From Candidatus Omnitrophota bacterium (GTDB lineage: Bacteria > Omnitrophota > Gorgyraeia > 2-01-FULL-45-10): DNA of 64,000 nucleotides. The notes under the pieces were generated by a model. The model did not search any database, was not told the DNA's origin, and saw only the letters and a list, made by a program, of their open reading frames with translations. Shown piece by piece: positions 6,531-47,986 of this stretch. How positions within the stretch are numbered: position 1 is the first letter of the stretch; every line of letters starts with the position of its first letter. The stretch is from assembly GCA_041663425.1 (NCBI GenBank), contig JBAYMS010000004.1, positions 2,213 through 66,212 of the forward strand, in the 5' to 3' direction. The translations under genes were made by a program, and so were the position numbers.

Positions 6531-6844
6531 GCAGAAAAGCGCGTTTGTGGACCGGGATGACGCTTATTGTAATATTAGCGTTCAACTATGGTATTTTCGG
6601 TTTTCCTTTGATAAGAAAAGCTCTTTCGCTCAACGATAAAGCGACGACGATACTGATGACGAAGATAAAGACGGGCAATGCCCTCAGAAGTTCGTCAGAA
6701 GAGGAATATATACTTGATATTTTCAGGCGCGAAAAGGAAGCTATCACACGTAAGTTGATAGTCCTTAACGCGGTCAGCCTGACGGTTGTGATCCTGATAG
6801 TAAGCTGGACGATGTTCGGGTTGGTTGTAAATAAGAAGAAATGA
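6527..6844 (+). CDS. Hypothetical small membrane protein (two predicted TM helices)
   Basis: 105 aa; ORF overlaps neighbours by 4 nt on both sides (translational coupling); no recognisable family. Confidence 0.5.
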   Translation: MSRKARLWTGMTLIVILAFNYGIFGFPLIRKALSLNDKATTILMTKIKTGNALRSSSEEEYILDIFRREKEAITRKLIVLNAVSLTVVILIVSWTMFGLVVNKKK

Positions 6845-7758: not shown

Positions 7759-9785
7759 TGGCCAAAAACCTGGTAATAGTAGAGTCTCCCGCTAAAGCGA
7801 AGACGATAAATAAATTTCTCGGATCAAGCTACAAAGTTGTCGCCAGTATGGGGCATATTATAGACCTGCCCAAATCGAAGCTCGGGGTAGACGTTGAGAA
7901 TGACTTTGCGCCTAAGTACATAGTTATGACGGACAGGAAAAAAAATATGGCTGCGCTAAAAAAAGACGCCAAGTCCAAAACTACCATCTATCTCGCAGCC
8001 GACCCTGATCGTGAAGGCGAAGCTATAAGCTGGCATCTGAAGAATGTGCTGGGCAGCGAAGATAAGAAATGTTACAGGGTCGAGTTCGACGAAATAACCA
8101 AAGATGCCGTATTGAATGCGTTTAAGCACCCCCGCGATATAAACATGAACCTCGTTAATGCCCAGCAGGCAAGGCGGATACTCGACAGGCTTGTCGGATA
8201 TTCCATAAGCCCTATCCTTTGGAAAAAGGTAGCTAGGGGGCTTTCGGCCGGCCGCGTCCAATCTGTTGCGCTTCGCCTGATAGTTGAGCGTGAAAGCGAG
8301 ATAAAGAAATTTAACCCTCAGGAATATTGGAGTCTCGAGGCTGAGCTTAAGCGTAAAGCGGATCAGCCGAAGGATAAATTTATCGCCAAGCTTTATAAAT
8401 ATAAAGGCGTGGATGCAGATATAAAACACAAGCAGGATGCCGACAAAGCTCTGGAGCAGCTTAAGAAGGAGACTTTTATAGTCAGCGATCTGCGGGAGAC
8501 CAAGAAAAAAAGAAATCCATATCCGCCGTTTACCACATCAAAGCTTCAGCAGGAGTCGTTTAATAAACTGAAATTCTCGGGTGCGAGAACGATGCATATC
8601 GCCCAGACTTTATATGAAGGCGTCGAAATAGGGGACGAAGGGTCTGTCGGTCTTATAACTTACATGAGAACCGATTCAGTGAAAATTTCCAAAGATGCTC
8701 AGGCGGCGGCTAAAGAGTATGTCGTGAATACTTACGGTAACAAATATTATCCGGAGACGCCGAATGCTTATAAATCTAGAAAATCGGCTCAGGAAGCGCA
8801 CGAAGCCATAAGGCCGACACTTCCTTTGAGGAGTCCTGAATCTGTAAGAGATACGCTTACGCACGATCAGTTTAAACTTTATCAGCTCGTATGGAACAGG
8901 TTTATCGCCAGCCAGATGACACCGGCTGTCTTTTCGCAGGTCACTGTTGATATTAACGCCGGCGATTATCTTTTTAAGGCCAGCGATACAAAGGTGGTGT
9001 TTGACGGCTATACGGCTGTTTATGAGGTAGAGAAAGAGAAAGAGGATGATGAGGACGAAAAGACCAAACTGCCGGAGCTTTCCGTCGGGCTGCCGCTCGA
9101 TCTTCTGAACCTCATTCCCGATCAGCACTTTACTAAACCGCCGCCGAGATATTCAGATGCGAGCCTTGTAAAGATACTTGAAGAGCTCGGCATCGGCAGG
9201 CCGTCGACATATGCGCCTATTATACAGACCATTACGGCGAGGGATTATGTCAGGCGTGAGTCCGGGTATTTCCATCCGACTGAACTGGGCACAATAGTGG
9301 TTGAGCTCTTAATGAAGCATTTCACCAAGATCCTTGATGTTGAATTTACAGCTAGAATGGAAAATGAACTCGATGGCATAGAAGAGGGCGAAGCGGACTG
9401 GGTTACGGTTCTCAAAGCATTCTATTCGCCGTTCATACATTCTGTCGAGGCGGCAAAGCTTGAGATGAAGGATGTTAAAAAAGAAATAGGCGCAACGGAC
9501 CAGATATGCGAGCTTTGCGGAAAGCCTATGGTTATAAAGTGGGGCAGGCGCGGGAAGTTTTTGAGTTGTTCCGACTATCCGACCTGCAAGAACGCAAAAT
9601 CGATATCTTCAGGCGTAAAATGTCCTAATGGCTGCGGCGGAGAGCTGGTCCAGAGACGTTCTTTCCGCGGCACCTTTTACGGCTGTACGAAATACCCCGC
9701 ATGCACATTTACTTCCAAAAAACTTCCGGGGACTGAAGACAAAGAAGCCGATGATGCCAAGAAGGATGGGGAATCAGCCGCTTGA
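7758..9785 (+). CDS. topA: DNA topoisomerase I
   Basis: 675 aa; TOPRIM N-terminus (LVIVESPAKAKTI), catalytic domain, and C-terminal Cys4 zinc-ribbon repeats. Confidence 0.95.
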   Translation: MAKNLVIVESPAKAKTINKFLGSSYKVVASMGHIIDLPKSKLGVDVENDFAPKYIVMTDRKKNMAALKKDAKSKTTIYLAADPDREGEAISWHLKNVLGSEDKKCYRVEFDEITKDAVLNAFKHPRDINMNLVNAQQARRILDRLVGYSISPILWKKVARGLSAGRVQSVALRLIVERESEIKKFNPQEYWSLEAELKRKADQPKDKFIAKLYKYKGVDADIKHKQDADKALEQLKKETFIVSDLRETKKKRNPYPPFTTSKLQQESFNKLKFSGARTMHIAQTLYEGVEIGDEGSVGLITYMRTDSVKISKDAQAAAKEYVVNTYGNKYYPETPNAYKSRKSAQEAHEAIRPTLPLRSPESVRDTLTHDQFKLYQLVWNRFIASQMTPAVFSQVTVDINAGDYLFKASDTKVVFDGYTAVYEVEKEKEDDEDEKTKLPELSVGLPLDLLNLIPDQHFTKPPPRYSDASLVKILEELGIGRPSTYAPIIQTITARDYVRRESGYFHPTELGTIVVELLMKHFTKILDVEFTARMENELDGIEEGEADWVTVLKAFYSPFIHSVEAAKLEMKDVKKEIGATDQICELCGKPMVIKWGRRGKFLSCSDYPTCKNAKSISSGVKCPNGCGGELVQRRSFRGTFYGCTKYPACTFTSKKLPGTEDKEADDAKKDGESAA

Positions 9786-10663
9786 TGCAGAGGTTTGTAG
9801 AAAAATTTATAAATTACCTTAAGGTTGAAAAGAATTCTTCGGCGCATACAATAACAAATTATTCTGTGGACCTCAAAGCGTTTGAAGAATTTTTAGGCGA
9901 CAAGGACGTTTCCGCCATAGACCACCTGCTGCTCAGAAAGTTTCTTGCCGATATGCGCGCGAAGGACTATTCGAAAAGGACCGTTGCGCGCAAACTTGCA
10001 AGCTTGCGGAGTTTCTTTAAGTTTATGTATCGCGAAGGGCACATAAAGACCAACCCTATTTCCGCGATATCTACGCCCAAGCTTGATCATAAATTGCCGG
10101 TTGTCCTGGACGAAGGGCAGATAGCAAAGCTGCTCCAGTGCCCTCCCGAGGATGATGTATTCGGGCTAAGGGACAGGGCTATGCTTGAGACGATCTACTC
10201 CGCCGGGATCCGCGTAAGCGAGCTGGTGGGCTTGAATATCAGCAACGTTGACCTGATCGGTGAGGTCATTAAGGTATTCGGTAAAGGTTCTAAGGAGCGG
10301 ATGGTGCCGATAGGCCGTCCGGCAGCTACAGCGCTTCGGAGATATCTCGATAGGCGCGATGAGCTGGGTGTTAAGGATAAAGACAAGAATGCGGTGTTCC
10401 TTGGTAAAAATGGGACGCGTTTGTGGGACAGAAGTGTCCGCCGCATACTTGATAAGCATATAAAGTCATGCGCCGTTGTGGAGCATATTTCGCCGCATAG
10501 CCTGAGGCATTCGTTTGCGACACACATGCTTGATCATGGGGCGGATCTGCGCAGCGTCCAGGAACTTCTGGGCCATGCGAATCTGTCGACAACGCAGATA
10601 TACACGCATGTGACGATGGATCGCCTGAAAGCGGTGTATGACAAAGCGCATCCACGGGCATAA
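9782..10663 (+). CDS. xerC: Site-specific tyrosine recombinase XerC/XerD family
   Basis: 293 aa; phage-integrase catalytic signature (R...HSLRHSFATHMLD...LGHANLSTTQIYTHV); conserved dprA-topA-xerC synteny. Confidence 0.9.
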   Translation: MMQRFVEKFINYLKVEKNSSAHTITNYSVDLKAFEEFLGDKDVSAIDHLLLRKFLADMRAKDYSKRTVARKLASLRSFFKFMYREGHIKTNPISAISTPKLDHKLPVVLDEGQIAKLLQCPPEDDVFGLRDRAMLETIYSAGIRVSELVGLNISNVDLIGEVIKVFGKGSKERMVPIGRPAATALRRYLDRRDELGVKDKDKNAVFLGKNGTRLWDRSVRRILDKHIKSCAVVEHISPHSLRHSFATHMLDHGADLRSVQELLGHANLSTTQIYTHVTMDRLKAVYDKAHPRA

Positions 10664-10703
10664 AGTTTTTGACACGGTAGAATGTGCTGTGTCAAAGTGG
10701 TTC

Positions 10704-10789
10704 GCTTCGGACGCGTAATTTTCAACCATGTGAAAATTACGCTCGGGAAAAATTGCTCGGACGCTGCCTCGCAATTTTTACGCCGAAGC
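10704..10789. repeat. Copy A of a roughly 85-nt structured palindromic element (closing stem GCTTCGG/CCGAAGC + hairpin 10713-10742 + hairpin 10748-10779); inverted homolog of 11901-11983
   Basis: Hand alignment to the reverse complement of 11901-11983 shows about 80% identity over ~68 nt including a near-identical 14-nt loop TCGGACGCTGCCTC, with compensatory differences in all three stems. Confidence 0.6.
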
Positions 10790-10884
10790 TCACCACTTCG
10801 CCACATCACATTCATGGTGAGCGAAAAGGTTTACTGGAATTACGGTTGCCCTGGGACACGTTCAATATCAAAACCGGGGATAGC

Positions 10885-10914
10885 TTGAAGGTTGCAGATT
10901 GTACCAGGTACAAT
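10885..10914 (+). promoter_or_regulatory. Sigma70-like promoter (TTGAAG-N18-TACAAT) overlapping a 17-bp perfect palindrome ATTGTACC-A-GGTACAAT (10898-10914)
   Basis: Hexamers and palindrome read directly; located 30 nt upstream of orphan ORF start at 10946 (RBS aagg at 10935). Confidence 0.45.
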
Positions 10915-10945
10915 ATATAGTCTTAGATAATATAAGGTTTATATT

Positions 10946-11764
10946 ATGAATAATAAGAAACCATTTGCTAACTGGGTCGTGGATGAATGGGACGCCTTTA
11001 TCGAAGTATGGCGGAATAGACGTATGCTAGCAATTATTGTATTAGTAATAATTGTAGGGATAGTGGCATACTGGATTATAGATAAGGGGGCTATGGTTAG
11101 GATAATTAGTGATCTTAAAGCGCAGGTTGCTAAGATTCAGACAGAAAATAAAGAGCTTGCCGTAGAGAAGAATTTGCTTCGCATTGAAAATACTAGCTTA
11201 AAAGAAACTGTTGCACCCCTTCTTAAGCAAGCCGCCAAGGAATTTCCAGGAGAAGAAATTAATGAGTCGTTAAAAAAAATAGTTACTAGACTGAACGCAG
11301 TCGCACCGCTTAGTCAACCAATACGAGTGGCTACCGCAGCCATTGAAGTACGGATCAAGTCCGAAGAGAGTTTAAATAGTCATTTTATGGATCGGGGTGC
11401 TTATATTGCATTTGCTAAAGAAGGATCTGGTTTTGCTTTTGGAACACAAAAGGAAATATTCGTGATTATGAAATCTTTAGATTGTTTTGCTAATCAATTG
11501 GGAGAAGGGGAGGTTGCATATAAAGCACTCTGTAATATGGATGTTGGTAAGGGCATTACTGAAAAGCCCATCTCCCATCTTAATGACGCTAATTATATTG
11601 AAGTAGGATTTTCGCCGATGTTAAAAAAAAGTGATGTAGATGTAACGGGAGGGTCTATTGTTTGTACATTTAATAGTCTGGTTCGTGCAGAATTAAATAT
11701 TCCTCCACAGAAAATGTCTAATGGTGTAATTGTAATTCGCGATGCTAAAATATCTTTAAAGTAG
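10946..11764 (+). CDS. Hypothetical membrane-anchored coiled-coil protein (orphan, AT-rich, likely horizontally acquired)
   Basis: 272 aa; short cytoplasmic N-term, one TM helix (LAIIVLVIIVGIVAYWII), ~80-aa heptad/coiled-coil segment, ~150-aa C-terminal globular domain with no family I recognise; codon usage visibly more A/T-rich than neighbours. Confidence 0.6.
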   Translation: MNNKKPFANWVVDEWDAFIEVWRNRRMLAIIVLVIIVGIVAYWIIDKGAMVRIISDLKAQVAKIQTENKELAVEKNLLRIENTSLKETVAPLLKQAAKEFPGEEINESLKKIVTRLNAVAPLSQPIRVATAAIEVRIKSEESLNSHFMDRGAYIAFAKEGSGFAFGTQKEIFVIMKSLDCFANQLGEGEVAYKALCNMDVGKGITEKPISHLNDANYIEVGFSPMLKKSDVDVTGGSIVCTFNSLVRAELNIPPQKMSNGVIVIRDAKISLK

Positions 11765-11900
11765 TTGTTGGAAATTTAGCTCTGGAATTAGTGCATAGTT
11801 GAATGCTCGAGAGGGCTGTGTTTACGCGACGATGTGCGCCAGATTGAGCGAGGAAATTTTTCGACTCTGTAGTAGAAATTCCCGCAGGGATTTGTGACGA

Positions 11901-11983
11901 GCGGGGCGTTAAAATTTCGAGGCAGCGTACGAGAAATTTTACAGAGCAAATTTTTTACATGGCTGAAAAATTTGCGTCCCCGC
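11901..11983. repeat. Copy B (inverted) of the ~85-nt structured element; closing stem GCGGGG/CCCCGC, hairpin 11946-11975, second hairpin 11909-11940
   Basis: Reverse complement aligns with 10704-10789; flanked by short mutually inverted hairpins 11875-11896 and 11988-12009. Confidence 0.6.
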
Positions 11984-12035
11984 GAGGCACAATCCCGGAA
12001 GGGAATTCCTCGAGGGATGAAAATTTAGGAGTGAG

Positions 12036-13304
12036 ATGCTTTACGACATAGGATTTTTCATATTTTCACTGTTCTACTTGCCGACTTTGATATTCAAGGG
12101 CAAGCTGCATGGTGACTTTGGCGAAAGGTTCGGCTTTTACGGCAGGGAGAAGCGCGCGGCGCTTGCGCAGGCCAAGGGCGCGATATGGATACAGGCGGTG
12201 AGTGTCGGAGAAGTTGCGCTCTGCAGGAGCCTTGTTCCGATGATGCGCGAAAAGTTTCCGCAGCATCCGATAGTCTTTTCGACGATAACAAAGACAGGTA
12301 ATGAGCTTGCCAGGAAATTGTTTTCCAAAGATGCGGTGATCATATATTTCCCGCTCGACTTTTCGTTCGTTGTTAAAAAAGTGATCCGCATGATAAAACC
12401 GAAGATGTATGTTATGGTAGAGACGGAGATATGGCCCAACTTTCTTAAGACGATAGAACGCAATACGATCCCTGCCATTCTTATAAACGGAAGGATCTCG
12501 GATAAGTCCTTCGGGAAATATGAGATGGCGAGGCCGTTCCTTCAGAAGATAATAAAGAATATGAACTCTCTGTGCATGCAGTCGAAGACCGATGCGGACA
12601 GGATAATAAAGATGGGCGCTGCCGCTGAAAAAGTAAAAGTCACCGGCAACATGAAGTTCGACGTTCCGGCCAAGCCCATCCAGTCCTCAGGCGATGAGCT
12701 CAAGAAACAGCTTGGGCTCGAGGAGGGCGATGAGCTTCTTGTGGCGGGATCGACGCATCCGGGCGAGGAAGAGGCGGTTATTGATGCGTATCAGGATATT
12801 GTTAAAAAGATCCCCGGCCTTAAACTTCTGATAGCTCCGCGCCACATCGATCGCGCGGATGAGGTTGCGGAAGTCGCCAGGGGCTGCGGATTTAATCCTG
12901 TTAAATTGTCTGTCCTGCAGTCGGATGCCTCTAATTCCCAGATTTTCATATTGGATACAATAGGCCGCCTGAACGATTTCTATTCGATCGCATCGGCCGT
13001 ATTTGTTGGCGGCAGCCTTATACCGCACGGCGGACAGAACCCGATAGAGCCCGCTATTTATGGTAAGCCCGTGATATTCGGGCCGTATATGTTCAATTTT
13101 AAAGGTATCGCCGAAGCGTTTCTCAGCAAAGATGCGGCAATACGGGTTGATGCTGCAGGTGACCTGACTGCCGTCCTTTATAATATGCTGGCGAATAAAA
13201 ATAGACAGGCGGAGGTCGGCTTGCGCGCCAAAGAGGTTATTGCCGCAAATAGGGGTGCCACAGAAAACGTATTGAATGAAATGGGCAGGTTCCTGAATGC
13301 GTAA
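12036..13304 (+). CDS. waaA: 3-deoxy-D-manno-octulosonic acid (Kdo) transferase
   Basis: 422 aa; N-terminal membrane anchor, GT30 N-domain (IWIQAVSVGEV) and C-terminal GT-B domain; followed by lpxK. Confidence 0.9.
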   Translation: MLYDIGFFIFSLFYLPTLIFKGKLHGDFGERFGFYGREKRAALAQAKGAIWIQAVSVGEVALCRSLVPMMREKFPQHPIVFSTITKTGNELARKLFSKDAVIIYFPLDFSFVVKKVIRMIKPKMYVMVETEIWPNFLKTIERNTIPAILINGRISDKSFGKYEMARPFLQKIIKNMNSLCMQSKTDADRIIKMGAAAEKVKVTGNMKFDVPAKPIQSSGDELKKQLGLEEGDELLVAGSTHPGEEEAVIDAYQDIVKKIPGLKLLIAPRHIDRADEVAEVARGCGFNPVKLSVLQSDASNSQIFILDTIGRLNDFYSIASAVFVGGSLIPHGGQNPIEPAIYGKPVIFGPYMFNFKGIAEAFLSKDAAIRVDAAGDLTAVLYNMLANKNRQAEVGLRAKEVIAANRGATENVLNEMGRFLNA

Positions 13305-14334
13305 TTTTATTTATTCGCTCATGACCGATAAACGCAAAGGCGCGTTTTATTCTATTTTGAAATTTATACTTTATGCCGTTTCTCTCGCTTATGGAGCGGC
13401 TATCCTGGTCAGGCGGCTTTTTTATACTGTCGGGATATTTAAGTCCGAAAAGGTCCCTCTGAAAATTATATCAGTAGGAAATCTCACCCTGGGGGGTACG
13501 GGGAAGACGCCTTTCGTCATATGGCTTGTCGATATGCTGGATGAAGAGTTTGATAAAAAGGCGAGCGTTCTTATCCGCGGTTATGGCTGGGACGAGCAGA
13601 CGATGCTTAAACGAAAACTTCCTGACACACCTATCATGGTCGGCGAGGATAGGGCAAGGTCAGCTCACAAAGCGATAAAATTATATGGAAGCGACACAGC
13701 GGTGCTGGACGACGGTTTTCAGCACTGGGAGCTATCGCGCAATATCGATATAGTGCTGATAGATTCCCGCAACCCTTTTGGTAATGGATTTCTGTTTCCG
13801 CGCGGCGTTCTTAGGGAGACCAAGGAGGCGCTCAAGCGGGCATCGGTTGTTGTGTTTACGAAGACGGATAAAAAAAATGCAGAACTTGACAATGTAAAGA
13901 GAGAGATTAAAAATATAAACGATAATATTGTATTCCTGGAAGCGGTCCACAGGCCTTTTTATGTAAATGACCTAAAAGGCCGTAAAGACCGCCCTCTGGA
14001 ATTTTTGAAAGGGAAAAGGGTCGTCCTTCTTTCGAGCATAGGAGATCCGGGTTATTTTGCCGATACGGTCCGCTCTCTGGGGGCGGATATAGCAGAGCAT
14101 ATAATATTTGCAGATCATCATAATTACAAAGAGTCGGACGCGGAACTCATAGTGAAGCGCTGCAATGAGCGGAAGTTTGATTTTATTTTAACTACGGAAA
14201 AGGATGAAGTTAAATTGCGCAGGATGTCGCTGTCGTTTGCGGGTTATCCCGTAATGACGCTTGCTATAAAGATGGACATTCTTTCAGGGAAGGAGCTTTT
14301 AGTTGATAGATTACGCAGCTTATATACTCGTTAA
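13297..14334 (+). CDS. lpxK: Tetraacyldisaccharide 4'-kinase
   Basis: 345 aa; P-loop VGNLTLGGTGKTP characteristic of LpxK; overlaps waaA stop by 8 nt. Confidence 0.9.
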   Translation: MRNFIYSLMTDKRKGAFYSILKFILYAVSLAYGAAILVRRLFYTVGIFKSEKVPLKIISVGNLTLGGTGKTPFVIWLVDMLDEEFDKKASVLIRGYGWDEQTMLKRKLPDTPIMVGEDRARSAHKAIKLYGSDTAVLDDGFQHWELSRNIDIVLIDSRNPFGNGFLFPRGVLRETKEALKRASVVVFTKTDKKNAELDNVKREIKNINDNIVFLEAVHRPFYVNDLKGRKDRPLEFLKGKRVVLLSSIGDPGYFADTVRSLGADIAEHIIFADHHNYKESDAELIVKRCNERKFDFILTTEKDEVKLRRMSLSFAGYPVMTLAIKMDILSGKELLVDRLRSLYTR

Positions 14335-16249
14335 GGCGCTGAATAAAATATTCAGCATTGTGCCTATAAGCGTATCTTTGTGGCTGGGCAGGCGCATAGG
14401 CGACTTTGCTTTTTTTGTCAATAAAAAGCGGAGGCTCGTGGCGTATGCCAATCTGAAATCCGCGTTCGCATCTGAAAAGACACCTGCGGAATTACGGCAG
14501 ATCACCAAGAGAATTTACCGGAATATGGTCCAGACTTTTGTCGAGCTGCTCAACCTGACAAAGATAAACCGGAAGTATGTAGATAAATACGTCGAAGTCG
14601 TGAATATGGAACGCATACGGAATGCCGCGAAATCCGGCAGGGGGACGGTGCTTCTGACTGCCCATTTCGGCGACTGGGAACTGTCGAGCCTGGTGAGTTC
14701 AGTGGAAGGGTTTCCGATACTGGTCCTTGCCAGGGAGCAGAAGATGAAGCGGCTGAATGAGCTGCTGAACCAGCTTCGTGAATCCAACGGCTGCAAAGTT
14801 ATCAGGAAAGGGATGGACGTCCGGAATATACTTAAGGCGCTGCGCGGTAAAAATATTGTAGGCGTGCTGTCGGATCAGGATGCTGGTAAAAAAGGCATGT
14901 TCGTTGATTTTTTCGGCAGGCCGACATCCTGTCATTCCGGACCTTTCGAAATAGCAAAACATACAGATTCGCTGATATTGCCTAATTTTATAGTCCGCAC
15001 AGGCGGGCCATATCATAAGCTTTATCTTGAAGAATATATTGATTTCCGTAATACGAATAGTCCCGATGATATAAAAGAGAACCTGCAGAAGTTTGCGAAG
15101 CTTCTCGAAAGCTATGTCCGGAAGTATCCCGATCAGTGGCTATGGCTTCACAAGAGATGGAAATCTACTCCTGTCAGGACGACGCTCGTCCTGAATGACG
15201 GAAAGGCCGGTCATCTGAACCAGTCTCTGGCTGTCGCAAAAGAGCTTCGCAGGGCGCGCATGACGCAGGGCTTTAAAGCGGAAGATACAAATATAGTAGT
15301 AGTTGATGTAAAGTATAAGAGCAAATTTTCCAGGGCGATACTTACGGCCGCCTCGCTTTTTGCAGGCTGGCGCTGTCACGGCCGGATGGGTATTATGAAA
15401 TTCTGTCTCGAAGAAAACACGTATGAAACTTTAATGAAGACGTATTCGGAGTTCGTAATATCGTGCGGATCCGCAACTACGCCTGTAAATATTTTCATGT
15501 CAAAAGAGAACAACGCGAAAAATATAACTATAATGACGCCTATGCTTGCGCCATTTACCATGCGTAAATTTAAACTTGCTATAATTCCGCGCCATGATCA
15601 TCCCGCCCGGACAAAGAATGTGGTCGTGACCGAGATCGCCCCTAACCTGGTGGATGCGGACAGGATGAAACGTGATGCAGCCAGTCTTAAAGAACAGATA
15701 GGCGGCGGCGTCGGAGATTCTGTAGCGTTATTTATCGGCGGTGACAATCCGGAATTCTCGATGGCCAGAGATATTGTCAATTCAGCCATAGAGGGGGTAA
15801 CAGAATTTTGTGATCGCTCCGGAGCGTCTATTTTTGCAACGACATCAAGAAGGACATCGCCTGAGATCGAAGGTATTCTGAAGAACAGGCTGCAGAATTA
15901 TCCGAAATGTAAGTTCCTCGTGATAGCTAACGAAAAGAACTTTGATTTTACGGTAAGCGGTATGCTTGCGTCATGTAAGGTTGCAGTGGTCTCGGAGGAA
16001 TCGATATCTATGGTCTCGGAGGCCATCTCTGCAGGCAGGAAAGTTATTGTATTCCGCCTGTCGAAAAAGAATGACGCTGTGACTAAACATGAACGTGCGC
16101 TTAAGACGCTTGCCGATCAGGGGTATATTGCTATTGTTGAAGCGTCAGGGCTGGTCGCAGCGCTTGAGAAAGCCTGGAATGATAAAACGGCCGTAAAGCC
16201 GCCTGAAGATATGGACCGTATCTTCGAGGCGCTTAAAAGGTTGATTTAA
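14303..16249 (+). CDS. lpxL: Fusion protein: lipid A biosynthesis (Kdo2-lipid IVA) acyltransferase LpxL/HtrB family (N-term ~290 aa) + ELM1/DUF1022-like putative GT-B domain (C-term ~350 aa)
   Basis: 648 aa; N-domain has the Lip_A_acyltrans hallmarks (LTAHFGDWEL, ...YPDQWLWLHKRWK); C-domain begins VLNDGKAGHLNQSLAVAKEL resembling bacterial Mito_fiss_Elm1 (PF06258) proteins; TTG start, overlaps lpxK 3' end by 32 nt. Confidence 0.7.
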   Translation: MIDYAAYILVKALNKIFSIVPISVSLWLGRRIGDFAFFVNKKRRLVAYANLKSAFASEKTPAELRQITKRIYRNMVQTFVELLNLTKINRKYVDKYVEVVNMERIRNAAKSGRGTVLLTAHFGDWELSSLVSSVEGFPILVLAREQKMKRLNELLNQLRESNGCKVIRKGMDVRNILKALRGKNIVGVLSDQDAGKKGMFVDFFGRPTSCHSGPFEIAKHTDSLILPNFIVRTGGPYHKLYLEEYIDFRNTNSPDDIKENLQKFAKLLESYVRKYPDQWLWLHKRWKSTPVRTTLVLNDGKAGHLNQSLAVAKELRRARMTQGFKAEDTNIVVVDVKYKSKFSRAILTAASLFAGWRCHGRMGIMKFCLEENTYETLMKTYSEFVISCGSATTPVNIFMSKENNAKNITIMTPMLAPFTMRKFKLAIIPRHDHPARTKNVVVTEIAPNLVDADRMKRDAASLKEQIGGGVGDSVALFIGGDNPEFSMARDIVNSAIEGVTEFCDRSGASIFATTSRRTSPEIEGILKNRLQNYPKCKFLVIANEKNFDFTVSGMLASCKVAVVSEESISMVSEAISAGRKVIVFRLSKKNDAVTKHERALKTLADQGYIAIVEASGLVAALEKAWNDKTAVKPPEDMDRIFEALKRLI

Positions 16250-16254
16250 ACTAA

Positions 16255-41320: not shown

Positions 41321-41356
41321 ACGATGGGGGATATAATAAATCCCCCATCGTTATTT
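41321..41356 (+). terminator. Rho-independent terminator
   Basis: 11-bp stem ACGATGGGGGA / TCCCCCATCGT with 9-nt loop followed by TATTT. Confidence 0.6.
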
Positions 41357-47926: not shown

Positions 47927-47951
47927 TGTTTATACTTTCTTGAAAGGGGGA

Positions 47952-47986
47952 AAGTGGGTTTATTAAAATAGACCCACTTTTTTATT
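47952..47986 (+). terminator. Intrinsic-terminator-like hairpin (8-bp stem AAGTGGGT/ACCCACTT, loop ~12 nt, then TTTTTTATT); either proS terminator or leader attenuator of the nusA operon
   Basis: Stem-loop and U-tract read directly; lies between the promoter-like element and the rimP start. Confidence 0.5.

Follow-up and report, generated by a model that had tools for sequence, protein, structure and literature searches.

Among the dispersed palindromic repeats of bacteria, ERIC elements are confined to transcribed intergenic regions, have longer variants with internal insertions at fixed points and have been proposed to play a role in mRNA stability; to our knowledge no dedicated transposase has been assigned to them. 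Of the miniature inverted-repeat transposable elements, or MITEs, Correia and RUP use TA as target, and the Correia/NEMIS elements of Neisseria are recognised by their 26-bp terminal repeats (TATAGTGGATTAA...) and an IHF site. IS200/IS605 elements have differing sub-terminal hairpins but no terminal inverted repeats, and insert 3' of a fixed tetra- or pentanucleotide, whereas in pdif modules accessory genes are flanked by inverted sites. According to PMC3733652, REPs are palindromic and extragenic, lie mainly 3' of open reading frames (ORFs) between genes of the same or converging direction, and often form inverted head-to-head dimers; their units have 20-40 nt, 8-9-bp stems, 4-5-nt loops and an unpaired GTAG or CGTC tag. 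Here we analyse an element that is present as two inverted copies, A and B, in a 64,000-nt stretch of contig JBAYMS010000004.1 of a Candidatus Omnitrophota bacterium (the window). A first-pass annotation of this DNA had described A as a three-way junction of about 85 nt and B as its inverted copy, and the letters at both sites agree with that description.

The 85-nt junction is the conserved apex of a longer, non-coding nested palindrome of approximately 170-260 nt, which has one or two interchangeable outer stems. The element belongs to a family confined to one clade of Candidatus Omnitrophota, and this family is very probably an interspersed palindromic repeat. It would be the first interspersed repeat family described in Omnitrophota, a phylum known almost solely from metagenomes; no literature linking Omnitrophota with palindromic repeats was found in the library that we could search.

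A repeat family with covarying stems

The earlier statement that the element is present twice holds within the window, but more than 100 distinct copies exist elsewhere. An exact-pattern scan with the hairpin 2 loop of 185,579 species-representative genomes returned 40 loci, all of them in metagenome-assembled genomes of Candidatus Omnitrophota (6 genomes), and a covariance model recognised 47 copies in these loci and the window. An independent pattern derived from hairpin 1 retrieved 62 metagenome loci, several of them on contigs of 0.46-0.83 Mb, in which 74 copies were found by the covariance model. Deduplication of the genome and metagenome sets left 105 distinct copies. Our own tally for the genome sampled best, SO_2017_LW4_139 (equivalent to Ga0265297), is 20 copies or more, which means tens of copies per genome, approximately one per 50-100 kb. 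As judged from the match coordinates, many contigs terminate within the element, as happens typically with assembly-breaking repeats. A phage origin was rejected because the hairpin 1 pattern had no match among the viral contigs.

Comparison of A with B (86 alignment columns) had suggested compensatory changes in the stems, and a manual count of the pairwise alignment found seven pairs altered on both sides: two in the closing stem, three in hairpin 1 and two in hairpin 2. A single pair is broken, the 14-nt loop has one difference (G/T), and there are only about four differences at unpaired positions. The view that the covarying stems and the conserved loop reflect a selected secondary structure became strongly supported once approximately 100 further copies were aligned. 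The genome-derived alignment A3 (43 distinct rows) and the metagenome-derived alignment A4 (65 distinct rows) were fitted to the covariance model, which gives them a lean towards structure; the stems are ungapped and the pattern is plain in the raw rows. In A3 and A4, respectively, 97.6% and 97.2% of the stem cells are paired, 17 and 19 of the 27 pairs are altered on both sides, and 113 and 151 cells carry such double changes. None of 500 shuffles attained the observed values with either alignment, and in shifted registers only 30-58% (A3) and 27-57% (A4) of the cells are paired. Pair 13/36 of hairpin 1 may serve as an example: it is A-T in 22 copies, C-G in 14, T-A in four and G-C in one. The outer stems covary as well.

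The loops are better conserved than the stems. In the set retrieved via hairpin 2 the CCATG of loop 1 is invariant in all rows but one, and in the set retrieved via hairpin 1 the TCGKACGCTGCCTC of loop 2 is unchanged in almost all 65 rows. One-sided changes are rare in the core (eight G·T and ten A·C mismatches among 1121 pair cells), so the stems keep essentially to strict Watson-Crick pairing, whichever strand is read. The 45 full-length copies have 34 G·T and 12 A·C beside 1990 Watson-Crick cells, a weak excess which comes partly from an ambiguous closing-stem column. A constraint at the DNA level, or one acting in both orientations, accounts for such strict pairing better than a classical RNA gene does, and an RNA role is still compatible with it. 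Cores are no more similar inside a genome (mean identity 0.83) than across genomes (0.82). Two species with 89% identity in their XerC proteins have 84-nt cores without any difference at non-orthologous loci, which means either strong constraint or exchange between species.

When A and B were folded with RNAfold, the shared closing stem and two hairpins were recovered in both copies, with free energies of -33.9 kcal/mol (z -5.0) for core A and -22.8 kcal/mol (z -2.9) for core B; the reverse strands fold equally well, as palindromes should. Hairpin 2 of copy B, previously given as 10 bp, has in fact 9 bp (TAAAATTTC/GAAATTTTA): the base following TTTTA is A, thus there is no extra G-C pair. With a covariance model built from A and B, the 64-kb window gave no match apart from A and B themselves (110 and 100 bits). 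On the opposite strands of these sites the scores fell to 22 bits, hence the two strands can be told apart through the loops and the junction. Searches with two covariance models with filters switched off yielded no further copy in the window, nor do the outer-stem and terminus motifs occur elsewhere in it.

A known RNA family was ruled out: Rfam 15 gave no match at the gathering score in the whole window, and at E <= 10 over positions 10600-12100 there were only two chance matches, both inside ORF272, a reading frame that lies between A and B. By our own reading, the junction strands AC / TCGG / ACG do not fit the cores of the hammerhead or other small ribozymes. Most copies have in the loop of hairpin 1 (window positions 10725-10733, CCATGTGAA) the sequence CCATG followed by TGA or TAA, which makes a minimal ATG-TGA or ATG-TAA ORF. 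No Shine-Dalgarno sequence precedes the ATG, therefore this start-stop ORF is probably a by-product of the CATG palindrome.

Element anatomy and genomic position

The extent of about 85 nt stands for the conserved core, but not for the whole feature, since the cores are the apices of longer nested palindromes (Table 1). In both A and B the core is carried on a further imperfect stem of approximately 25 bp, and versions of about 140 nt gave z -8.7 (A) and z -5.0 (B) when folded as RNA. The consensus of 45 simple full-length copies begins with AAAATTTTTCG, 8-12 poorly conserved nucleotides, GAATGTGCTGTGTCGAGTGGTTCG and the closing stem, and ends, after the other strand of the closing stem, with CTCACCACATCGCCACATCACATT, a spacer and CGAAAAATTTT. 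Between them the junction is laid out as GG-AC-(hairpin 1, loop RCCATG)-TCGG-(hairpin 2, loop TCGKACGCTGCCTC)-ACG-CC. Hairpin 1 has 12 bp (GCGAAATTTTCA and TGAAAATTTCGC) and a 6-nt loop; hairpin 2 has 9 bp, with the same consensus arms as in copy B, and a 14-nt loop. The inverted termini, (T)AAAATTTTTCG ... CGAAAAATTTT(A), are approximately 90-99% conserved per column in the 45 copies. Within the family the length of the unit is 165-264 nt, and there is no ORF inside.

Table 1. Features of copies A and B and of the segment between them (window positions)
Feature	Position	Strand	Remarks
Full element A	10661-10833	+	173 nt; flanks aligned to family consensus; one end-to-end hairpin capped by the three-way junction, DNA z -6.4
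A left terminus, TAAAGTTTTTGA	10661-10672	+	degenerate form of family terminus TAAAATTTTTCG
A outer stem type 1, 5' arm, GAATGTGCTGTGTCAAAGTGGTTC	10680-10703	+	inverted repeat I2, 31 nt, 84% complementary
Core A	10704-10789	+	three-way junction; closing stem 10704-10710/10783-10789
Core A hairpin 1	10713-10742	+	loop ACCATG
Core A hairpin 2	10748-10779	+	loop TCGGACGCTGCCTC
A outer stem type 1, 3' arm, TCACCACTTCGCCACATCACATTC	10790-10813	+	
A right terminus, CGAAAAGGTTTA	10822-10833	+	degenerate form of CGAAAAATTTTA
Low-GC segment (38.5%) between A and B	10834-11851	+	context of the repeat, not part of it
Full element B	11852-12027	-	176 nt; inverted relative to A; end-to-end fold, DNA z -4.0
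B A/T-rich inverted termini	11852-11863/12018-12027	-	
B outer stem type 2, 3' arm (element orientation)	11875-11900	-	not homologous to A outer stem
Core B	11901-11983	-	three-way junction as read on the - strand
B outer stem type 2, 5' arm (element orientation)	11984-12009	-	

The outer stem comes in two types. Type 1, the type of copy A, is found in most family members; it has conserved mismatches and one bulge, and in locus L035 (loci are denoted by L numbers) a compensatory change from AATGTG/CACATT to AACACA/TGTGTT. Type 2, the type of copy B (GGAATTCCCT.CGGGATTGTGCCTC...), either substitutes for type 1, as also in L014, L032, L025 and L026, or is nested within it (L005, L006, L013, L016 and L002:3707). 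Other variants have a small third hairpin 3' of the core (L009, L033, L036), are truncated (e.g. L048:6215-6295) or form an inverted dimer without a gene inside (L047). The most divergent members (L097:3806, L099:2840, L047:311, L047:3071 and L041) have kept the termini and the junction bases GGACGC...GCTC(G)G...ACGCC, whereas neither the hairpin arms nor the loops show any relation to the consensus. In L088 (1960-2170) the inverted copy next to a TPR gene has an insertion of approximately 50 nt in hairpin 1 after ...CATGG, thus the apex tolerates or attracts insertions. AnTn tracts (AAAATTTT type, never TnAn) are at the heart of every stem, in the termini and in both arms of hairpins 1 and 2 (in the window, e.g. 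10716-10723, 10733-10740, 10749-10754 and 10773-10779). Each unit contains CGAAA(A)TTTT or the complement of it six times, and this sequence is a candidate protein-binding or DNA-bending motif.

No copy lies within a convincing gene; the copies occupy intergenic gaps, from the stop codon of one gene to the ribosome-binding site of the next. For 49 of the 105 copies an adjacent ORF of 80 codons or more ends in frame on the terminal TAA (44 at the left and five at the right terminus), its stop codon being composed of the T preceding the terminal A-run and the first two A's of the run. The far end of the element typically adjoins the ribosome-binding site of the next gene. Both situations can be seen in the window: the stop codon of the xerC-like ORF (9782-10663) is the TAA at 10661-10663, i.e. 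the first bases of element A, and the + strand end of element B (12027) adjoins an AGGAG ribosome-binding site, which is followed by the ATG of waaA at 12036. Relative to the flanking genes 80 copies have the same and 17 the opposite orientation (binomial p = 6e-11, a value that is overstated since orthologous copies are not independent). The window itself is a very compact, strongly strand-biased genome segment, in which almost all long ORFs between 1 and 62300 are on the + strand, head to tail, and neighbouring ORFs overlap or leave very short gaps; in the part that was profiled (7-16 kb) the GC skew is positive all along.

The genes upstream of the element are diverse housekeeping genes encoding Xer, DapB, IlvC, DnaK, FtsW, RecO, PriA, RibH, CoaX and others, and this diversity rules out a functional coherence of the kind known from riboswitches. 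Some families are repeated among the upstream neighbours because copies sit at orthologous positions in different species. Orthologous sites can also differ between genomes, one having the element and another an empty site. The window has a 5-nt gap (16250-16254) between the lpxL-ELM1 fusion and the next glycosyltransferase gene where L038 has a complete element, a 10-nt gap near 1630 that is filled in L034 and L048, and a junction near 6840 where L048 has a truncated copy; at least seven additional filled/empty pairs were found among the other loci. In one of the pairs (L096 and L072) the empty allele stops with TGA and the filled allele with the element's TAA. The flanks of these pairs are only 70-83% identical, thus loss cannot be distinguished from gain and the exact target is not readable. 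The lpxL-ELM1 gene of the window (14303-16249) is a single ORF that fuses the Lip_A_acyltrans and Mito_fiss_Elm1 domains, and the fusion is kept in L038.

The element was also considered as an intrinsic terminator and rejected: the terminator scan gave no site coinciding with it, and its terminal T-run is fully paired to the opposite A-run. Elsewhere in the window there are compact, near-perfect hairpins in short intergenic gaps at 41321-41351 and 47951-47980 (ACGATGGGGGATATA/TAAATCCCCCATCGT and AAAGTGGGTTTATT/AATAGACCCACTTT), which are probably ordinary terminators unrelated to the element. Large nested palindromes of other, unrelated sequence were seen upstream of waaA in L038 (reverse strand, between ORF223 and waaA) and in L019 (3180-3700 of the oriented sub-locus). 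One of these, GCAAATTTATGGGT...ACCCATAAATTTGC, has a length of approximately 250 nt, and they terminate in the same ...CGTAAAAATTT-AGGAG motif as the element. These Omnitrophota genomes seem to host several palindromic repeat families with common A4-5T3-5 termini.

The xerC-waaA slot and the interpretation of the element

In the window the gene order is topA, the xerC-like gene (encoding a 293-aa XerC/D-type protein), element A (+), the low-GC segment, element B (-), waaA, lpxK and lpxL. The segment contains ORF272 (10946-11764, 272 aa), which has no Pfam or PADLOC match. Its 19 homologues (identity 45% or less) are sporadic in Planctomycetes, Thermoplasmata and others, and neither the element nor inverted repeats were found around those examined; for the lack of a domain and the homologues without the element, ORF272 was rejected as the element's own gene. 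The segment with ORF272 is flanked by a 9-nt direct repeat, CTGGAATTA, at 10834-10842 and 11782-11790 (approximately 0.04 such matches are expected by chance), and a promoter-like sequence, TTGAAG-18-TACAAT, lies between the repeats at 10885-10914. This suggests that the ORF272 gene was inserted between two pre-existing inverted copies, the 9-nt repeat being perhaps a target duplication. The gene of low GC that the window pair flanks was acquired by horizontal transfer and lies between xerC and waaA.

The xerC-waaA slot is occupied by unrelated low-GC genes (GC 33-39%) in close relatives, whose XerC is 80-89% identical: an HNH nuclease gene in L038, and a NYN nuclease gene and a membrane protein ORF in L019. 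It looks like a small hotspot of defence or accessory genes. The arrangement element(+), one low-GC gene, element(-) was found in three independent cases: in the window, in L002/L092 and in L088. In L002/L092 it follows a different Xer paralogue (40% identical), and the relative L029 has at this place a solitary element and no cassette; the arrangement is not present in L024. In L088 the inverted pair surrounds the TPR protein gene mentioned above. A direct repeat of 8-9 nt around the flanked gene was found only in the window, not in L002 or L088.

Each Xer gene in the fetched loci has a co-oriented element directly 3' (10 loci, or eight without the SO_2017 duplicates). The first paralogue group comprises the window, L019 and L038/L048, the second L002/L092, L024, L029, L090 and L100. 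It must be noted that presence of the element was the criterion by which the loci had been selected; Xer genes lacking it were thus not visible. An Xer gene is the upstream neighbour in 5 of 70 cases, representing two orthologous sites out of approximately 45, and DapB in 3 of 70. The association between Xer and the element is suggestive at most.

On balance we consider it probable that the element is a non-autonomous interspersed palindromic repeat which is selected to fold as a single strand and has a role at the level of the transcript. The element is short, non-coding and multi-copy, has terminal inverted repeats and shows insertion polymorphism, as MITEs do. It would have spread as a MITE-like unit mobilised in trans by a separate enzyme, and its termini are compatible with duplication of a TA target. 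For its persistence it would have to fold as a single strand, and the place of folding would most plausibly be the polycistronic transcript, because the element lies between stop codon and ribosome-binding site and shows an orientation bias. There it may act as a large intercistronic or 3' hairpin in the protection of mRNA 3'-ends, in processing or in insulation, as has been proposed for REP and ERIC, and the invariant loops may be the contact surface for a host factor.

Several observations weigh against this interpretation. The 17 opposed copies score, in our own comparison, as well as the co-oriented ones, which a strictly strand-specific RNA function does not predict, and in the core stems G·T is as rare as A·C, whereas a pure RNA constraint normally leaves an excess of G·U. 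Because genes are strongly co-oriented in these genomes, orientation relative to genes is confounded with the direction of replication; transcription of the element and any RNA role are deduced from just two features, position and orientation. As to mobility, 31 of 45 copies are directly preceded by T and 32 of 45 directly followed by A, which suits a TA duplication, but would equally suit a 12-bp terminal inverted repeat. Direct repeats of 3-4 nt flank none of the 45 copies, and a longer target-site duplication was likewise not found. An all-against-all BLAST of 250 ORFs from the first 40 loci revealed no multi-copy protein beside the elements, and in the flanks there was no transposase among the 25 commonest families of upstream neighbours. 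A fuzzy search for an autonomous element with widely spaced outer-stem arms was uninformative, as each arm matched its own reverse complement.

The main rival explanation, which we regard as unlikely, is that the element serves as substrate for an enzyme acting on single-stranded DNA (HUH/Y1; of the REP/REPIN-RAYT or IS200/IS605 type) with its hairpins formed on the lagging-strand template. The loops and the junction would then be determinants of recognition and cleavage, and the orientation bias would come from replication, not from transcription. Such an enzyme would be consistent with the strictly Watson-Crick core without G·T excess, with loops and junction being better conserved than stems, with the intactness of the opposed copies and with an 80:17 orientation ratio in genomes that have co-oriented genes and positive GC skew. 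It would also suit the inverted dimers, which resemble those of REPs (L047 and the window pair), and ACGC, repeated at the 5' junction, in the hairpin 2 loop and at the 3' junction, could represent cleavage or guide sites. The element has, on the other hand, clear terminal inverted repeats, which are absent from IS200/IS605, and occurs in tens of copies per genome, not hundreds. Its unit of approximately 175 nt, with stems of 12 and 9 bp and loops of 6 and 14 nt, departs from the REP dimensions given in PMC3733652. No Y1/HUH gene was seen in approximately 770 kb of flanks, a weak negative that comes only from the paralogue search in the first 40 loci and the Pfam scan of upstream neighbours. 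The IS200/IS605-like origin offered by the first-pass annotation thus gained no positive support. The orthologous copies kept across species after the DapB, IlvC, DnaK, RecO, PriA and Xer genes, with an identity exceeding that of the coding flanks, would in turn be expected of a non-mobile, cis-acting structured RNA (intercistronic or in the 3' untranslated region) that binds a protein or directs processing or termination and is inherited at operon junctions. The strong covariation, the invariant loops, the co-orientation with the flanking genes and the exact placement between stop codon and ribosome-binding site would be explained as well. We find this reading rather improbable: it has to contend with terminal inverted repeats, with presence and absence at orthologous sites where gene order is otherwise intact, with truncated and nested copies, and with the 17% of copies which are opposed and equally intact; furthermore, the neighbours lack functional coherence, the core has no G·U enrichment and there is no Rfam match. 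Of the earlier suggestion of a structured non-coding RNA, the orientation bias and the invariant loops speak for an RNA, whereas a classical stand-alone RNA gene is made less likely by the inverted termini, by the occurrence of truncated and nested copies and by the missing G·U excess.

The xerC-waaA slot raises the further question whether the element could be a module of a tyrosine recombinase (XerC/XerD or a relative) that delimits or captures cassettes, like pdif, attC or the folded CTX attP, with hairpin 1 as the crossover site. In favour of this one can cite the co-oriented element directly after both Xer paralogue groups (10 loci), the unrelated low-GC genes in the slot of close relatives, the three independent gene-flanking pairs and the 12-6-12 geometry of hairpin 1, which is that of a recombinase core site. 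We consider it nevertheless very doubtful. The free covariation of the hairpin arms means that these are not double-stranded binding sites of a specific sequence; the same covariation contradicts the earlier proposal of recognition by a dimeric DNA-binding protein. Most copies are solitary after unrelated housekeeping genes, with Xer in only 5 of the 70 cases, and the loci had been selected for the element. Copies that flank a cassette are inverted relative to each other, whereas integrons have direct ones; such flanks are missing around the ORF272 homologues elsewhere, and the 9-nt direct repeat points to insertion between copies that were already there. Only a shade less doubtful is a broader variant, according to which a host factor not so far linked to such elements recognises the core by sequence and shape when it is folded as single-stranded DNA or as RNA, and inverted pairs mark or create cassette slots; XerC/XerD would be the most interesting candidate for this factor, because a copy follows both genes. 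The two copies in the 64-kb window could by themselves be put down to a local inverted duplication or a chance palindrome without wider significance, but this is refuted by the more than 100 copies elsewhere and by covariation far beyond the shuffle and shifted-register controls, and has virtually no probability left.

Whatever force maintains it, be it RNA function, recognition of single-stranded DNA or both, the element has consequences for its hosts and for their study. It breaks assemblies, makes long hairpins at operon junctions, provides stop codons for about half of the neighbouring genes and marks at least one variable slot with turnover of defence-like genes. More than 100 copies with covarying stems, invariant loops and modular outer stems constitute a clean natural dataset on the maintenance of branched palindromes. 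If the loops bind a specific protein, the element would open a way to study how genes are regulated, or how plastic genomes are, in an uncultured lineage. The cassette reading, if true, would mean a new structure-guided system in Omnitrophota for the capture of foreign single genes (nucleases, membrane proteins).

Comparison with known palindromic elements

The element resembles ERIC/IRU, REP/BIME and MITEs (Correia, RUP, bcr1) most, and appears to be a member of none of them. More distant similarities can be found among sites of recombination and replication. Integron attC sites, the pdif sites of Acinetobacter and the folded attP of the CTX phage are imperfect palindromes that are recognised by structure, are associated with tyrosine recombinases and flank single accessory genes, features which recall those of the element. 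By our reading, however, the element lacks the R''/L''-L'/R' boxes of attC (RYYYAAC...GTTRRRY), and neither an array nor intI is present; the majority of copies stand alone at a distance from any recombinase gene, and the gene-flanking pairs are inverted. In comparison with dif and pdif, the 12-6-12 geometry of hairpin 1 is similar, but its arms covary, and we could recognise neither an ATAA-N6-TTAT core nor a dif-like 11-6-11 sequence with conserved XerC/XerD arms. The T-shaped inverted terminal repeat of parvoviruses (adeno-associated virus) is a structural analogy only: it too has two small palindromes in a larger one, and the window pair is likewise inverted around a gene. That virus is a eukaryotic one with linear single-stranded DNA, whereas here most copies are solitary and chromosomal, with no sign of a linear replicon. 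With IS200/IS605 the element shares the conservation of hairpin structure rather than sequence and possibly a strand bias, but it is one whole palindrome with inverted termini.

The likeness to bacterial MITEs is closer. Correia/NEMIS (Neisseria), RUP (Streptococcus pneumoniae), bcr1 (Bacillus cereus group) and Nezha (cyanobacteria) are also non-coding, intergenic sequences of 100-300 nt with terminal inverted repeats, they show presence/absence polymorphism and can fold into long RNA hairpins; the termini of the element are compatible with the TA target of Correia and RUP. The first-pass annotation had offered a palindromic DNA element, such as a Correia-like MITE core, as one of its possibilities. 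As a multi-copy intergenic repeat with inverted termini and filled and empty sites this was the closest of the identities offered, but the element is not Correia: its termini are AAAATTTTTCG, which differs from the Correia consensus as we know it. Other differences from the MITEs are that here the central apex is the most conserved part, not the termini alone, that identical cores are found across species, and that no cognate insertion sequence with matching ends was found near the element.

With ERIC/IRU (127 bp) and YPAL/RU-2 the element has in common that the whole length is an imperfect palindrome of 100-200 nt, present in tens to hundreds of copies. Like ERIC/IRU, it is intergenic and lies near stop codons, has longer variants formed by internal insertions, and has orthologous copies kept between species. 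It comes from another phylum, has a three-way junction and modular outer stems where ERIC has a simple hairpin tip, and presumably bears no sequence resemblance to the 127-bp ERIC consensus. REP, BIME and REPIN sequences, as described in PMC3733652, are similar in being palindromic, extragenic, plausibly transcribed and present as inverted dimers with covarying stems. The element differs from REPs in its length of approximately 175 nt, its A/T-rich terminal inverted repeats, its branched apex, its lack of an unpaired tag of the REP kind and its tens, not hundreds, of copies per genome. The GACGC at the junction had suggested a CGTC-tagged REP, but the stem, loop and tail are not those described in PMC3733652, and among the neighbours of the element, which cover the flanks only, no RAYT gene stood out. 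What sets the element apart from all these systems is the branched apex with invariant loops together with interchangeable outer stems. Although repeats of this general kind are familiar, we have here a well-defined family of unusual structure from an uncultured phylum.

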